Origin: a virus
Strand: one strand, 5' to 3'
Length of the DNA stretch: 64,000 nucleotides
UHGV virus genome: UHGV-1351408
In this document: positions 16,368 through 29,585 of the stretch, piece by piece
Position numbering within the stretch: the first letter of the stretch is position 1
Layout: each line of letters starts with the position of its first letter
The notes under the pieces: generated by a model
Database searches by the model: none
Told to the model about the DNA's origin: nothing
What the model saw: the letters and a program-made list of their open reading frames with translations, nothing else
Position numbers and translations under genes: made by a program

Positions 16368-17267
16368 ATGTCACAAGCTGATTTGAGTTACAAAAATATC
16401 CTGAACCATGTTTTATCCGTTGGTGAACTGCGTACTACACGAACTGGAGATGTTATCTCTGCATTTGCTCCACCACAATTTCGTTTTGATATGCGTACTG
16501 GTTTCCCACTCTTAACATCTAAACAGGTGTTTACACGGCAAGTTATTGGGGAAGCTTTATGGTTCCTGAATGGTGAGAATAAACTTGGTGAACTTCGTTA
16601 CCGTACTTGGGGTGAAAATGATGGGGAACGCTGGACTATCTGGTCAGATGATTTTAAACGCTGGTTGAGTTCTAATTATTCTTCTGAACAAGACTGGTTA
16701 GAGGATGCAGGTGGGAGAATCTACGGAGTTCAGTGGAGAAACTTTGAAGGTCATAATGGTTGTGTTGTAGACCAGTTAGAAACCTTAGTAACGAAGATGA
16801 AGGGTGATATCACAGACCGTTACATGCTTGTTAATGCTTGGAATGCAGCAGATATTGCAGCAAACTCAATGGCTCTAGCACCTTGTCATGTTCTGTTTCA
16901 GATTTATATTACTAACGAGGGTGAAGTTGACTTACAATGGTATCAGCGTTCAGTAGACACCTTTTTAGGACTTCCGTTTAATATTGCATCTTATGGTTTT
17001 ATTCTGGAAGTTCTTTGTAAGATGACTGGATACACTCCACGGTACTTGATAGGTGTCTTTGGGGATACTCAGATTTATCAGAATCATATGAAGCAGGTTT
17101 ATGAACTGATGAACAATGAAGAGTTCCATGCACCAACTTTTGAGATTGGTATCCCACTTAACACTTTAAGTGACTTAAAACACCTCACTGCAAGTGACTT
17201 TATCGGTGGTATTAACAATTACCAACATGCAGGAAAGATTGAAGCACCTTTGTCAGTAGGTAAATAA
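16368..17267 (+). CDS. thymidylate synthase (ThyA-type)
   Basis: Active-site region MALAPCH and QRSVDTFLGLPFNIASY. Confidence 0.85.
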   Translation: MSQADLSYKNILNHVLSVGELRTTRTGDVISAFAPPQFRFDMRTGFPLLTSKQVFTRQVIGEALWFLNGENKLGELRYRTWGENDGERWTIWSDDFKRWLSSNYSSEQDWLEDAGGRIYGVQWRNFEGHNGCVVDQLETLVTKMKGDITDRYMLVNAWNAADIAANSMALAPCHVLFQIYITNEGEVDLQWYQRSVDTFLGLPFNIASYGFILEVLCKMTGYTPRYLIGVFGDTQIYQNHMKQVYELMNNEEFHAPTFEIGIPLNTLSDLKHLTASDFIGGINNYQHAGKIEAPLSVGK

Positions 17268-17270
17268 AAC

Positions 17271-17300
17271 AAAAAAGGCTCCCGTAAAAAGGAGCCTTAA
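17271..17300. terminator. convergent terminator hairpin
   Basis: AAAAAA-GGCTCC-CGTAAAAA-GGAGCC between the converging thymidylate synthase and 17304-17675 genes; strong T-run on the minus strand. Confidence 0.55.
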
Positions 17301-17303
17301 ACT

Positions 17304-17675
17304 TTACTTTTCAGTATTCTTTGTGTTCTTTTCAGTAATAGCTTGGAGGGCTGATACTGATTGAGCCAGATTGTTCACACTATCAGAGAATTTATCAAGA
17401 GTCTTAGTAAGTTTTGCGTTCTCACCCTTAACATTCTCTAACTGGACTTTCTGGTTCTCCATCCCTAGCTGAAGCAGCCTCATATCAGACTGTAAATCAC
17501 GAATAGCTGAATAATTACTTTTGGAATAATTATCTAACTGCTGTAACTTTGTTGTGATAGACACTTCTTGCTTACCATCCGAGACTTGCATGGTGGTATA
17601 CATACCAATAACACTAAAAATACCAACTACAATTGCACCAATATTATTTTTAAAAGCTTCCTCTAGCCACTTCAT
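17304..17675 (-). CDS. membrane-anchored coiled-coil protein (possible i-spanin-like)
   Basis: 123 aa; N-terminal TM segment IGAIVVGIFSVIGMY then coiled-coil region. Confidence 0.45.
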   Translation of the reverse strand: MKWLEEAFKNNIGAIVVGIFSVIGMYTTMQVSDGKQEVSITTKLQQLDNYSKSNYSAIRDLQSDMRLLQLGMENQKVQLENVKGENAKLTKTLDKFSDSVNNLAQSVSALQAITEKNTKNTEK

Positions 17676-17869
17676 TTATTCTCCCCCTTAAAAGCTTTTT
17701 CTAAGTTATCTACGAACTCATCATCAATAGGTGTGTCTGTTTTACTCGCAAGGTATCTTGCAAGCCTAAAGAACACTTTCTCAATCATGTATTCACTTAG
17801 AAGGGATAAAATGAGTTTCCAGAAGAAGCTACCTAGATTTTTTAGAAGAATTGCTAGGATTGTAGGCAT
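17672..17869 (-). CDS. small membrane protein
   Basis: 65 aa, hydrophobic N-terminus. Confidence 0.4.
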   Translation of the reverse strand: MPTILAILLKNLGSFFWKLILSLLSEYMIEKVFFRLARYLASKTDTPIDDEFVDNLEKAFKGENK

Positions 17870-17948
17870 TTAATCACCTCATCAGCCAAGATGGTGAGAA
17901 TACCCATAAAAAATATTAACACCATCTTAACAATCAGTCAACAAGGGA

Positions 17949-20333
17949 TTAAGCAGTTCTTACCCAAGCCATTAACTTGTAGAACTGGTTAGTAACACTA
18001 AATGCCGAACCAGAACCTGTACTACCAGTATTACCACTAACTGTGTGGCTGTGAGCACCAATGCCTACAGAGTGGGAATGGTTACCAGCACCACTTGTAG
18101 TACCAGACCATGTGTGTGTATGGTTACCAGTTGTGTTAGTGTTAGGGAACTTGTTATCAGTTCTGTCAAGCCAGTCAAGAGTTCTTGTCTTATTGTTACC
18201 AATAGTGGTATATCCGTACTGAGCATCACCACCATTAACCAATAGCAGACCTAAGTGGTGAGCGTGGTTACCAGCAGCACTTGTTGTACCACTTACAGAG
18301 TGAGTATGACCACCAGTGCTATTAGTACCCTTCGTACCATAATCAAAAGATGAAGTGGTAGCAGAGAAACTGTGAGTGTGTGATGGTAAGTTACCAACAG
18401 CTAACGTTACAGAATCTGAACCACCAGTTGTAGCAACATCTGAACCATTTGCTGCTGCGATTCTGATAGTTCTACCAACACCATTGTTCAGGTATGTCCA
18501 AGTTAGACCAGGAAGTGCTGTATTAGGGTTAACATTACTGTTAAACCACGTTACAATACCAACTGGGTAGATTTTATTAAGGTCTGTAGAGTCACTTACT
18601 GCCTGTGCAATCTTCTGGTCAGTCTCAGCTTTAGTGTATGCACCGATATCTGAAGGGGTTGGTTTAAAATCAGTTGTGTAAAGCTGTGCCTCTCCGGCAT
18701 AGTCACCATTTTTGTCATAGGCATAGGTGAATGTTGCCAAACCATTTGAACCGTATACAAAAGAGATACCCCTTGCATGTGCAGCAGACTTATTAGAGTG
18801 AGCAACATGAATTGCCAACTCTTTCAGACCACTAGTCACACTGTTGTTTCTGACAAAACCTGAATACCCAAGATTAAATGCTGAAGGGTTTTCAAGATTA
18901 TCTACAGATACAGTCATCAAGGATTGATTTAATAACTGAGTCTTAACAAAGTATCTAGCATCTAAGTTAGACCAATCAGATGGCTGAACTTGACCAGTAA
19001 TGGTTAGATTCTTATTAGCCTTAATCACTGAAGTCCCAAGAGTAATTTGAGTGCCAGAGAAACTATTGTTTAAGGCTACATCAGTAGAATTTGTGCCACC
19101 CACACCTACCCACCATCTAGATACATTCGCAGTATCAACACCACGGATATATTGTGGCTGCCCCTGTGTTAAGTTCCTTAATACTACGCCTTCATTATTT
19201 GATACAATAGTTTGCACATTCACAAATGTGTTAGCAACATTAAGTTTAGGTAGGTTACTCAAAGTTGCGGCTGGGATGTATCTAGAGTCAATGTTAGCCC
19301 AATCTGAAGGTTGAACTTGACCACCAATTTGGACTGTTCTGCTCATGGTAATGGTGTTACCTAGTGAGATTTGTGTTCTTGCTAAATAGTTATAGATGTT
19401 TACAATGTTCTCATCACCGTCATTACCAATGTACCACTTATTAGTTCCATCTGATTTTCTTGCTTGGATATACAAAGCAGCAGTTGTATCTACATTTTGC
19501 AGAGTAATAGCATTAGCATTCTTCTTAACAACAAAATTAGTGAAAATATTAGAGCCACTAAATGTGTTATTACCAGCTAACTGTGCAAATCTCTGGTTAG
19601 CTTCTGTTTGAGTAAAATATCTAGCATCCAAGTTAGCAAAACTTGATGGCTGAACTTGACCAGCAATTTGAAGAGTCCTGTTGACTGTTACTAAATTTCC
19701 CAAAATAGCAATTGAAACGTCAGTCTTGACATTCTTTAACACAAGGTTGTCTGTGCCTTTATTATCATTACCTAGATACCACCTGTTAGTACCGTCTGCA
19801 TCTTGACCACGAATATATAGCGGCATTCCTTGTGTAATGTTCTTAACAATAAGAGCTTCATTATCAGAGAGGATAGCTTGAGTACCTCTAAATGTGTTAT
19901 TTACAGCTAATCTTGCATATCTTGCATCATTCTCTTCATTAGTTCTCATCCCAAGTTCATTAGGACTTGGTTTATTCAGAGTATGGTAAACAGTTGCTGA
20001 CCTTGAAGCATCTGCAATAGTTAGCTTAAGACCATTTGAGTTGATTTTAAAAGACTTTAAAACATCTCCGATATTAATCTCAGAAGAGCCTGTTGGGTCA
20101 AATACTGTCTTACCACCATAAAGTAACTTAACAATTCCTAAGTCACCTGCCATAGTGCTACCAGCAATCTGAACAAATCTCTCAAGTTTAAAAGATGCTA
20201 AGAAGTCTTGATAGGTCATTCGACGGTCTTCATCACCCAGCATTTCAGGTCTCTTTTTAACTCTGACATGAAGAAGGTCATCTGAACGGATTGTGTCGAT
20301 TGAGTTTAATTCACTCAACTTGTAATCTGCCAT
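17949..20333 (-). CDS. tail fiber protein with internal repeats and C-terminal HxH motifs
   Basis: 794 aa; repeated ~100-aa units ([14 protein letters not shown]); C-terminal HTHSFS / GGHTHS / GNHAHH / GNHSHS. Confidence 0.7.
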
Positions 20334-20379
20334 TATAAATTTTCCTCTTAAAAGGGGCTATAAAGCCCCTGTAAAGAAA

Positions 20380-21567
20380 TTAAGCTGTTCTCTGCCATAC
20401 ATACAGTACGAATGATGGCTGCTCAATGTTGAAAGCTTGTCCACCACCAACACTGTTAGTGTTTCCGCTATGTGTATGCTCAGAAGAAGAAACTGTCACA
20501 GTACCGTTGTGTGTATGTGAACCAATACCAACTGTATGGCTATGAGCACCAATACCCACTGTGTGATTGTGGTTACCGGTTGTGTTAGTGGTAACGCTAA
20601 AAGAGTGGGTGTGCGAACCAGCGACTTCGCAGACAGCATCTGCTGAGTACCACGATTGGTCATTCCTTGTAGACCAAACCATTGCAGGTCTTTCCGACAG
20701 ACCACCACCTGCTTCATAAGTCAATCTGTGGTTGTGAGCACCAGCAGCACTTGTTGACCCACTACCAACGTGATTGTGGTTACCAGTTGTGTTAGTGGTC
20801 TTTGTTCCATAGTCAAAAGAGTTGGTAGTCTTAGTTCCATAGTCAAAAGCTGAGATTGAAACAGTTGCATTATGAGTGTGACCACCACCACTGAGAGACA
20901 CAGAGTGTGAGTGTTGAGGCATATTATTAACTGACAAAGTGACAGTTGAAGCACCAAATACAGAACCTGCTGGCCTTGTATCAGAGTCATAACCAACCAA
21001 TGCCCTACCTTTTGAAACTAACTCCCAAGTACCTCCACAAATTAAGTATGTAGAAGGATTTGCAGAGTTCATAGAAAGATGGATAGTACCTACTGGATAA
21101 GAAGCCTGAACAGCCTTGTACAAGTTATTTACTGCTCTTGCTGTAGCATACTTATCTGCATCTTCGTTATACAGATTAGATGTTGTCCAGTTCTGGACAT
21201 TACTTAAACCAACCTGTGCCTTAGTTGTATTGTGTGGGTTACTCTTGTCCTTAATATGTTGCTGAACAAGGTTATTAACCTCTTCTGAAGACATAATCTG
21301 TAGATTTGCTCTTGCCTCAGCTACATTAACAATATCTGATAAGTTATTTGCAGCAACTAACTGAAGAGCATTAATAACATTATCTAAACCAATTTGTGTC
21401 TTAGTAACACCATGAGGGTTATTTTTTAGGCTTGAGTGTGGAGCAAGTAATTGCTCAAGAGTACATCTCTTATCCTCAATACCCTGCTTAAGATGGAAGA
21501 TATCACTAAGGTCAATTGGTAAGGCTGCTTGAGGCAAGGCACTAATTTGAATTTCACCTACTGCCAT
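20380..21567 (-). CDS. tail fiber protein (HxH-repeat paralog)
   Basis: 395 aa; HSHSVS, GGHTHN, GNHNH, GSHTHS motifs; DNA segments shared with 17949-20333. Confidence 0.65.
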   Translation of the reverse strand: MAVGEIQISALPQAALPIDLSDIFHLKQGIEDKRCTLEQLLAPHSSLKNNPHGVTKTQIGLDNVINALQLVAANNLSDIVNVAEARANLQIMSSEEVNNLVQQHIKDKSNPHNTTKAQVGLSNVQNWTTSNLYNEDADKYATARAVNNLYKAVQASYPVGTIHLSMNSANPSTYLICGGTWELVSKGRALVGYDSDTRPAGSVFGASTVTLSVNNMPQHSHSVSLSGGGHTHNATVSISAFDYGTKTTNSFDYGTKTTNTTGNHNHVGSGSTSAAGAHNHRLTYEAGGGLSERPAMVWSTRNDQSWYSADAVCEVAGSHTHSFSVTTNTTGNHNHTVGIGAHSHTVGIGSHTHNGTVTVSSSEHTHSGNTNSVGGGQAFNIEQPSFVLYVWQRTA

Positions 21568-21569
21568 TA

Positions 21570-29585
<8,016 letters not shown>

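Follow-up and report, generated by a model that had tools for sequence, protein, structure and literature searches.

The paired tail fibres of a Felix O1-like myophage have gp37-type tips and very probably diversify by cassette exchange at conserved junctions

Results

Two adjoining fibre genes in the locus of a Felixounavirus

We analysed a 64,000-nt stretch of the virus genome UHGV-1351408, referred to here as the window, in which two neighbouring genes very probably encode the receptor-binding short and long tail fibres (STF and LTF) of a Felix O1-like myophage, with tips of the T4 gp37 type and with cassette exchange taking place at conserved junctions. The LTF gene (17949..20333, 794 aa) and the STF gene (20380..21567, 395 aa) adjoin on the minus strand, at exactly the limits given in an earlier, sequence-only reading of this DNA, and every feature described below lies on that strand.

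The window is a Felixounavirus, a Felix O1-like myophage (coliphage). Over 24 kb its backbone is 96–98% identical to Felixounavirus isolates, and Felixounavirus records also give the best GenBank match over the whole fibre locus, at 93% identity. Successive ORFs of 489, 287, 100, 395 and 794 aa fit the Felixounavirus order of wedge 2, wedge 1, a small platform ORF, STF and LTF, as laid out in Bas63, where wedge 2 has 489 aa and wedge 1 ~285 aa (PMC12609058); the genes before the fibre pair are baseplate genes, with matches to Baseplate_J (Pfam) and phrog_4017. STF matches the tail fibre family phrog_2097 (E 2e-137) and is the equivalent of Bas63 gp26 (PMC12609058) and Felix O1 gp76. LTF matches the tail fibre family phrog_4277 over its full length (residues 1–794, profile of 780 positions, E = 0), and its equivalents are Bas63 gp27 and Felix O1 gp77.

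The two genes are separated by a spacer of 46 nt (20334..20379), read directly from the sequence, which holds an AAGAGG ribosome-binding site and, at 20350–20369, a GGGGC/GCCCC hairpin followed by TTTT. The hairpin, also present in the relative L006, was not called in a terminator scan, and promoter and terminator counts across 17200–22000 equalled those of shuffled sequences. Searches for a relevant Pfam or PHROG function in the two ORFs downstream of LTF gave no match.

Repetitive coding DNA can misassemble, and the LTF genes of two related loci (L012 and L016) are frameshifted, as might be expected if HxH-coding repeats had been collapsed or chimerised during metagenome assembly. In the window, however, neither fibre ORF is interrupted or truncated relative to its PHROG profile, the same arrangement recurs in isolate genomes at 92–96% identity, and repeats as short (21 nt) and as diverged as these would not collapse. 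We consider an assembly artefact extremely improbable.

Tips of the gp37 type on both fibres

In phmmer searches, STF residues 146–367 matched chain positions 18–228 of the T4 gp37 tip 2XGF (E 2.6e-26), and LTF residues 650–774 matched chain positions 105–219 (E 5.2e-22). The HxH boxes of both fibres align one to one with those of 2XGF, with 7 of 7 T4 boxes aligned in STF and 6 in LTF. STF contains nine HxH motifs (residues 219, 230, 264, 278, 319, 333, 342, 351 and 364) and LTF six (residues 652, 676, 690, 738, 752 and 761, plus H693); composition shuffles averaged 1.4 and 0.37 motifs, respectively, and none of 2000 reached the observed counts. These figures bear out the runs of H-x-H motifs that the sequence-only reading had pointed to at the ends of both proteins. 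It had also called the tips gp37/gp12-type, of which the first half agrees with the 2XGF homology and the second is not supported: at E ≤ 0.01, PDB sequence searches with either fibre matched gp37 and gp10 only, and gp12 was absent. In each protein the motifs are split by a histidine-free head, 4+5 around residues 281–316 in STF and 3+3 around residues 694–735 in LTF.

STF is laid out as an N-terminal baseplate-binding part, a helical/NPH-motif shaft, a collar, an HxH needle, a head and a return needle. Its collar (residues 157–218; 20914..21099) matches gp10 in the PDB and Pfam PF21939 Gp10_C, the latter at 68.6 bits and over the 27-bit cut-off, and shows a conservation of 0.88–0.90 among 30 genomes. 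The descending needle strand (residues 219–280; 20728..20913) carries four HxH boxes together with two FDYGTK repeats, and the ascending strand (residues 317–366; 20470..20619) carries five HxH boxes. Between them lies the hypervariable head (residues 281–316; 20620..20727), a putative receptor-contact region that aligns with the gp37 head of 2XGF. Conservation here falls to 0.34–0.42, and 8 allelic types were counted in 28 genomes, types being set, here and below, at an arbitrary threshold of 75% identity.

The putative LTF collar (residues 589–650; 18384..18569) aligns with that of STF and has a conservation of 0.83–0.89; its Gp10_C score of 24.1 bits is under the 27-bit cut-off. It is followed by a needle-plus-head cassette (residues ~659–765; 18040..18359) that is common to gp37 of some Tequatroviruses and whose head proper, at about 18129–18254, is of 11 types among relatives.

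By homology with 2XGF, and in line with the cryo-EM description of Bas63, each fibre would be a homotrimer whose conserved N-terminus docks on the baseplate. In the C-terminal tip the collar would lead into the needle, along which the chain is predicted to run down, make a small head and return up. The three chains would then contribute HxH motifs that stack along the needle axis and coordinate metal ions, at 6 sites in LTF and 7–9 in STF, as expected from the gp37 homology. Receptor contact would be made by the hypervariable head that separates these HxH blocks. A single-sequence AlphaFold2 model of the STF tip (residues 140–395) failed, with an unusable pLDDT of 32 and pTM of 0.17, and trimer, chain reversal and metal binding therefore rest on homology.

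Repeats and a variable domain in the LTF shaft

Three stretches of LTF match the Pfam family gp37_trimer (PF20744, E 4e-59), and three clear shaft repeats of ~110 aa can be delimited, at 32–41% pairwise identity (identities under about 50%, here and throughout, come from unreliable alignments). R1 (residues 137–246; 19596..19925) consists of a variable beta-helix body and a conserved 14-residue linker, R2 (residues 247–359; 19257..19595) is defined by the repeat alignment and the conservation profile, and R3 (residues 360–465; 18939..19256) includes the best PF20744 stretch, at residues 382–466. The sequence-only reading had counted three to four internal repeats of ~100 aa; three are clear, and the further units flanking them are degenerate, at 18–26% identity. 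The shaft would thus be made up of three (plus degenerate) beta-helix units of ~110 aa joined by conserved linkers.

The shaft repeats are followed, ahead of the collar, by a variable domain, D4 (residues 466–560; 18654..18938), with a weak gp37_C match, a conservation of 0.31–0.52 and 13 types. LTF length varies from 777 to 849 aa. We rejected unequal crossing-over in repeat number as the cause of this variation because the long forms (840–849 aa) differ by the replacement of D4 with an unrelated longer domain (20–22% identity). No variable repeat number is reported in the Bas63 paper (PMC12609058).

Independent assortment of fibre modules among relatives

The comparison drew on 28–30 genomes from IMG/VR, supplemented by a small number of GenBank loci. 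Conservation is 0.8–0.9 in the N-terminus, linkers, collar and C-terminus and 0.23–0.45 in the shaft bodies and heads. Among 28 genomes every module occurs as 8–15 discrete types (10 for R1, 12 for R2 and 15 for R3), found in shuffled combinations that form four-gamete quartets; the fibre modules assort independently. Individual genomes illustrate the pattern: L018 is 91% identical to the window in R3 and 49% in R2, L017 is 96% identical in R2 and 43% in R3, and L001 is 99–100% identical over STF and 55% in R1. In the nearest IMG/VR genome STF is identical, but the first shaft repeat differs. Mosaicism of the fibres in related phages, on which the sequence-only reading had staked its interpretation, is therefore extensive.

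Alignment of the LTF of the window with that of L002 shows divergence starting after GGHTHSVSG and similarity returning at HSVGIGAH, and in STF the window and L005 diverge after TTGNH and regain similarity at a 10-residue box. The head is flanked by a GxHTHSVSG box and a conserved 10-residue box. As judged from such comparisons, the breakpoints sit either at His boxes or at linkers of the shaft.

The variable segments are the surface or receptor parts, on which positive selection would be predicted to act, and published felixounavirus papers put fibre variation down to mutation; on that account the variable segments would simply be evolving fast under receptor-driven diversifying selection while the conserved ones are structurally constrained, and recombination would play no part. 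Identities, however, are bimodal (at least 80–97% or at most 55%) and independent between adjacent modules, and transitions are abrupt, taking place within a few codons. Together with the paralogous heads and the interfamily cassette described in the next section, these features make an origin by selection alone very unlikely, and we infer that recombination is the process that generated the mosaic pattern. Candidate junctions are the His boxes GxHxHSVSG and a 10-residue box, FDYGTK, and the linkers QVQPSxxANLDARY and LAxNNTFxG. Recombination at these sites would swap the variable bodies as cassettes: among felixounaviruses, between STF and LTF within a single lineage (the Salmonella clade), and across the divide that separates felixounaviruses from T4-like phages.

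Apparent tip exchange between paralogous fibres and between phage families

In Salmonella phage UAB_Phi87 (L020), STF and LTF share exact tracts of 32 and 113 nt, which end at GAHTH and GDHSHTV. Codon identity over the tips is 67%, versus 43% expected (P = 3e-7), and the paralogous heads are 94% identical to each other compared with 76–91% to their orthologues, a relationship at odds with divergence without recombination. STF and LTF of Salmonella felixounaviruses have evidently exchanged heads. The sequence-only reading had proposed that DNA shared by the two fibre genes provides substrates for recombination between them, and in these relatives, with breakpoints at HxH-coding boxes, the proposal stands.

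The LTF needle-plus-head cassette (18040–18359) is 87.2% identical at the nucleotide level to the T4-like phage N2 over 95% of a 336-nt query, and is about 90% identical in amino acids and 80–97% in nucleotides to gp37 of the Tequatroviruses SHBML-50-1 and sutha. The collar, the C-terminal cap and all N-terminal parts are unrelated or distant, with flanking identities of 33–50% in nucleotides. Such an island of ~320 nt, which matches a member of another phage family at 87% identity and is set between unrelated flanks, again runs counter to an account by diversifying selection; at the level of comparative evidence, it essentially demonstrates transfer of the cassette between T4-like gp37 genes and Felixounavirus LTFs.

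In Tequatroviruses gp38 lies directly downstream of gp37, whereas tblastn of Tequatrovirus gp38 against the 64-kb window (genome ~88 kb) found no gp38-type chaperone, the best match having E = 1.5. We tentatively raise the possibility that the HxH-bounded needle-plus-head is a portable cassette, movable between gp37 and LTF as well as between STF and LTF, that in Felixounavirus folds without a T4-type gp38 chaperone.

DNA shared by the two fibre genes of the window

The segments singled out by the sequence-only reading were described as near-identical and as recurring at 18121, 20570 and 20770. The 21-mer TGGTTACCAGTTGTGTTAGTG, for which no copies are expected in shuffles, is exact at 18121..18141, where it encodes (N)TNTTGNH in the first ascending LTF His box, and is present with one mismatch at 20570..20590, in an ascending STF His box (residues 326–333) in register with the LTF copy. 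A further exact copy begins at 20777, 7 nt from the position that had been given, and extends to 20797 in a descending STF His box (residues 257–264), out of register with the LTF copy. Near-identity does not extend beyond these boxes: the 21-mer is the longest exact STF/LTF match, and the surrounding repeat families are only 60–78% identical over 40–81 nt.

We asked how far these segments argue for repeated tip swaps, and hence host-range switching, through active recombination between the STF and LTF genes of the window itself. The 21-mer, present in three copies, exceeds the longest match in 97.6% of synonymous-codon permutations (mean 14.5 nt, P = 0.024), sharing of short k-mers is likewise above the synonymous-permutation expectation (P 0.017–0.037), and the 21-mer is kept at 0–1 mismatch in the window, L001, L003 and L004. 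Precedents for such a process are the STF/LTF exchange in the Salmonella clade and T4 gp37, for which duplications as well as swaps that use conserved motifs are reported (Tetart 1996/1998, as cited in PMC3157838).

Against this, the aligned tips use identical codons at 53% of their shared residues, codon usage predicting 47% (P = 0.12), the STF and LTF heads of the window are of different types, and identity around the 21-mer is low. One of the two pairings (18121/20777) would set an up-strand box against a down-strand box, and since STF and LTF are direct tandem copies, a single crossover would delete 2.4 kb, comprising the 3' part of STF and most of LTF, rather than swap tips. The LTF 21-mer is also exact at the same cassette position in the Tequatrovirus gp37 loci L030 and L031, and so travels with the cassette instead of stemming from homogenisation by STF. 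Nor is a length of 21 nt exceptional, given that the longest STF–LTF matches between different genomes have a median of 17 nt and a maximum of 49 nt. An exact scan of IMG/VR for the 21-mer returned only four contigs, all already in the comparison set, indicating that this box is not broadly conserved as a DNA signal across that collection.

Active recombination between the window's own fibre genes is, on this evidence, unlikely, and the part of the earlier proposal that concerned the window itself is not upheld, the sharing being near what codon constraint predicts. The tips of STF and LTF are ancient paralogues that differ in their heads, and their DNA resemblance, the 21-mer included, is mostly a product of conserved peptide boxes plus codon bias. 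Because the 21-mer and the k-mer sharing slightly exceed the permutation expectation, short-tract homogenisation of the His boxes may nevertheless have occurred within this genome. The main host-range route in these data would be cassette exchange between phages rather than between the window's own two genes.

Discussion

The fibre architecture and evolutionary mode that we describe are already known, and the allele combination is new. Bas63 (JohannRWettstein), Felix O1 and VpaE1 belong to the same genus as the window and share with it both the order of the genes that follow the baseplate wedge genes and the two-fibre design, noted for Felix O1 gp76/gp77 (PMC3185647) and VpaE1 gp74/gp75 (PMC4690856); the window differs from all three in its combination of alleles. 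The same tip architecture has been described by cryo-EM for Bas63 gp26/gp27 (PMC12609058). As in the window, whose LTF collar is a putative one, both fibres of the Bas63-type pair have gp37-like collar-needle-head tips with di-histidine motifs, and the LTF contains beta-helix repeats and is variable both at its tip and in the repeat bodies.

An HxH-box needle flanking a head is likewise common to T4 gp37 (2XGF), to gp37 of the Tequatroviruses SHBML-50-1, sutha and N2, and to the window, although each fibre of the window is a single protein and the T4 fibre is a gp34–37 assembly. The short fibre T4 gp12 combines a domain of the collar type with a metal site coordinated by histidines. STF is also a short fibre with a collar-type domain, but its needle is multi-box and of the gp37 type.

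The conserved motifs in T-even adhesin swapping are reportedly His boxes. The loci compared here resemble that system in that conserved short motifs flank hyperplastic segments and the junctions of natural chimeras lie in or beside the motifs; such chimeras were seen in relatives (L020, L002, L005 and the Tequatrovirus comparisons) and not within the window itself. They differ from the T-even model in belonging to another phage family, in having two paralogous fibres, in involving shaft modules too, and in that our case is built on comparative sequence only.

The fibre pair is ordinary for its genus and opens no new biological question. Our analysis adds a map that gives the coordinates of the exchangeable units and their junction motifs, which should be useful for host-range engineering of Felix O1-like therapeutic phages and for predicting receptor specificity from sequence, and it adds one tip cassette common, almost unchanged, to T4-like phages. 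Were the portable-cassette reading true, the ~320 nt at 18040–18359 would constitute a natural, chaperone-independent retargeting unit operating across phage families. Within this cassette the LTF of the window has HAHH at residues 690–693, where Bas63 is described as having HHxH at 692–695.

Two tail fibers with gp37-like tips

ORF calls placed the short tail fiber gene (STF, 395 aa; tail-fiber family phrog_2097, E 2e-137) at 20380–21567 and the long tail fiber gene (LTF, 794 aa; tail-fiber family phrog_4277, matched end to end, E = 0) at 17949–20333, both on the minus strand; these two neighboring ORFs fill exactly the interval (17949–21567) that a sequence-only reading had flagged. The whole fiber locus is 93% identical to Felixounavirus isolates, e.g. 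LF82P9 and ECML-1, and the adjoining 24 kb share 96–98% identity with Felix O1-like phages of E. coli, Shigella and Salmonella. These identities assign the window to a Felix O1-like myophage.

The H-x-H runs noticed in both proteins were borne out, with six motifs in LTF (aa 652, 676, 690 (with H693), 738, 752 and 761) and nine in STF (aa 219, 230, 264, 278, 319, 333, 342, 351 and 364); composition shuffles predict 0.4 and 1.4, respectively, and 0 of 2000 shuffles reached the observed counts. Against the crystal structure of the T4 gp37 receptor-binding tip, the STF tip aligned across collar, needle, head (the variable segment between two HxH needle blocks) and return needle (E 2.6e-26), and the LTF tip across needle, head and return needle (E 5.2e-22), which indicates that both are homologous to it. 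In the alignments, STF has a counterpart for each of the seven T4 HxH boxes plus two extra boxes, and LTF has a direct counterpart for five; its sixth box, PSHTH, is most likely the equivalent of T4 KAHSH, which would leave LTF without the last T4 box only. The Pfam Gp10_C collar is above threshold in STF and just under it in LTF. Of the proposed gp37/gp12-type tips, the gp37 part is thus upheld and the gp12 part is not, as neither protein matched a gp12 chain in a search against PDB sequences. The needle of T4 gp37 holds a column of iron ions, with HxH residues from its three chains as ligands, and the head makes contact with the receptor; for phage Bas63, an iron-column needle with a receptor-contacting head was described by analogy (PMC12609058). 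By the same analogy, the HxH boxes of this phage may form a metal column, giving a trimeric needle stapled by metal, and the head would be the receptor site. A single-sequence AF2 monomer model was unusable (pLDDT 32).

Mosaicism of fiber modules among related phages

Both genes were aligned across 29 related IMG/VR loci. The N-termini, collars and C-termini of both fibers and the shaft linkers QVQPSxxANLDARY...LAxNNTFxG are conserved (0.8–0.95 in the conservation profile), and the bodies of the three LTF shaft repeats (R1–R3), a domain following them (D4, aa 466–560), the LTF head (aa ~681–745) and the STF head (aa ~263–320) are variable (0.23–0.45). Per-module nucleotide identity to the window is bimodal and incongruent. 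Locus L001 matches the window at 99–100% in STF but at 55% in R1; L017 at 96% in R2 but 43% in R3 and 30% in D4; L018 at 91% in R3 but 49% in R2 and 43% in R1. L005, L008 and L009 share D4 (96–97%) but neither head (37–40%), whereas L003 and L004 share the LTF head (92–95%) but not R2 (49%) or R3 (41%). Clustered at 75% identity, each module falls into 8–15 discrete types, with the combinations shuffled among loci and four-gamete quartets in several module pairs. Absence of fiber mosaicism among relatives, which the sequence-only reading had named as evidence against itself, is clearly not what we found; the modules assort independently, with junctions at His boxes and linkers. Between the window and L002, which differ in the LTF head within the same flanks, identity runs through GGHTHSVSG, collapses and returns at HSVGIGAH; between the window and L005, which differ in the STF head, it runs through TTGNH (aa 264) and returns at aa ~335. 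Thus, the variable heads are bounded by His-box-coding DNA. Homologous or short-homology recombination during co-infection would generate such mosaics, and fiber exchange would have consequences for host range.

Codon constraint and exchange between the two fibers

A 21-mer coding the His box (T/N)TNTTGNH occurs at 18121 (exact), 20570 (one mismatch) and 20777 (exact), with none expected by chance; the third copy lies 7 nt from the previously reported 20770. Beyond this 21-mer the segments are not "near-identical", the extended repeat families showing 60–78% identity across 40–81 nt. When synonymous codons were shuffled within each gene, keeping proteins and codon counts (1000 permutations), the longest exact STF–LTF match averaged 14.5 nt and was 21 nt or longer in 2.4% of permutations (P = 0.024); shared 12-, 15- and 18-mers showed a similar mild excess (P 0.017–0.037). 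At the 90 positions of the aligned tips with the same degenerate amino acid, the codon was the same in 53%, where codon usage predicts 47% (P = 0.12). In this genome, then, STF and LTF resemble each other in DNA essentially as old paralogues with peptide boxes in common would, and any signal beyond codon constraint, such as the slight excess in longest match and k-mers, is faint at most. The LTF copy lies in an ascending box; it pairs in register with the copy at 20570 but not with that at 20777, whose box descends. As the two genes sit in tandem in one orientation, one crossover between copies would remove ~2.4 kb and swap no tip. Ongoing recombination between the window's own two genes at the 21-mers is not supported.

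STF/LTF exchange has happened in lineages other than the window's. Within a genome the longest exact match is usually 11–27 nt; L016 and L013 reach 37–41 nt, and L020, Salmonella phage UAB_Phi87, reaches 113 nt. In UAB_Phi87, where STF/LTF conversion is recent, the fibers share identical tracts of 32 and 113 nt across the descending needle and whole head, beginning at GAHTHSVSG and ending right after GDHSHTV, with sparse nucleotide matches on either side. Their codon identity, 67%, exceeds the 43% expected (P = 3e-7). The paralogous heads of this phage are 94% identical to each other and 76–91% identical to orthologous heads of the same fiber type in other genomes; in this clade, heads do not sort into an STF group and an LTF group. 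The head type occurs at two or three places in Felix O1 and about 58 Salmonella records.

A tip cassette shared with some T4-like phages

The head type of the window's LTF recurs in gp37 of T4-like phages. From SSFDYGTK to GIGAHSHTV, gp37 of SHBML-50-1 and sutha is ~90% identical to LTF in protein and 80–97% in DNA, while their collar and C-terminal cap are unrelated (33–50%). Of a 336-nt query (18030–18365), 95% aligned with T4-like phage N2, at 87.2% identity; in T4 itself only the two needle flanks matched, not the head. The exact 21-mer occupies the same cassette position in these Tequatrovirus gp37 genes, and the LTF copy therefore belongs to a traveling cassette. LTFs of VpaE1-type contigs (L006 and L007) bear, at the place of window 18099–18293, the T4 gp37 head type of PDB 2XGF (…GEHSHYIEAWNGTGxGGxKMSSYAxSYRxGGSNTNAAGNHSHTFSF…), a second, independent case of Felixounavirus/T-even tip sharing, which fits the published common specificity of VpaE1 and T4 for E. 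coli B LPS (PMC4690856).

The two-fiber architecture with HxH needles has been published for the genus from Bas63 cryo-EM in 2025, with tip and shaft-repeat variability noted across all ICTV felixounaviruses (PMC12609058), and gp37 homology of both fibers was noted for Felix O1 in 2010 (PMC3185647) and VpaE1 in 2015 (PMC4690856). The ideas that motifs mediate adhesin swapping and that fiber segments move horizontally between unrelated phages are classical (PMC3157838 among the sources), and receptor-module exchange between distant taxa was restated in a 2026 preprint. In the felixounavirus and fiber literature examined, we found no module-by-module map, no STF/LTF conversion bounded by His boxes in Salmonella felixounaviruses and no near-identical Felixounavirus/Tequatrovirus cassette; these are refinements inside a known paradigm, and the window is a fresh allele combination of a known fiber architecture.

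Shaft repeats and flanking genes

The proposed three to four internal LTF repeats of ~100 aa resolve into three clear ones (aa 137–246, 247–359 and 360–465; 32–41% pairwise identity; Pfam PF20744 three times) with a degenerate unit on either side (10–26% identity to them). LTF length ranges from 777 to 849 aa among loci. An extra shaft repeat was ruled out as the source of the long forms (L010, L011, L014, L015, L026 and L027), in which an unrelated, ~60-aa-longer domain (20–22% identity) replaces D4 (18654–18938). In L012 and L016 the LTF ORF is frameshifted, open for only 541 and 453 aa, with the downstream tip intact in another frame, either through sequencing error in repetitive DNA or as genuine LTF-defective variants. 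The STF shaft (21190–21420) carries NPHxxTKxQxGLxNVxN twice, at aa 50–66 and 110–126 (LKNNPHGVTKTQIGLDNVIN and KSNPHNTTKAQVGLSNVQN); PHROG matches over STF aa ~97–143, a stretch that takes in the second copy, suggest that other phage families also have the motif in their tail proteins.

Upstream of the fibers lie the baseplate wedge genes Baseplate_J (489 aa) and phrog_4017 (287 aa), then an uncharacterized 100-aa ORF (21570–21872, minus strand; phrog_4141), in the same order and sizes as gp23–gp25 of Bas63, the genes ahead of its short (gp26) and long (gp27) fibers (PMC12609058). By synteny only, from gene order and neighbor sizes, this ORF would correspond to gp25, the "LTF platform", a T4 gp9-like attachment point for the long fiber (PMC12609058). 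Downstream of LTF, two ORFs of 65 and 123 aa (17304–17869, minus strand; phrog_402 and phrog_4038, no known function) have stretches that appear hydrophobic by eye, with a sub-threshold DivIC match only; T4-like phages have gp38 and holin in this place, but these ORFs are not gp38-like. In the Tequatroviruses compared a gp38-type assembly gene comes next after gp37, whereas no gp38 homologue was found anywhere in the 64-kb window. The structural backbone (22000–46000) is 96–98% identical across E. coli, Shigella and Salmonella felixounaviruses and the fiber locus (17949–21567) 60 to 93%; host genus tracks the fiber cassettes, not the backbone. The 46-nt STF–LTF spacer (between 20333 and 20380, minus strand) holds a ribosome-binding site and, between it and the STF stop, a small GC hairpin (20350–20369, minus strand; GGGGC-TTTATA-GCCCC then TTTT), which a terminator scan did not call. 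The hairpin, kept in L006, may act as an attenuator that sets the expression of STF relative to LTF.
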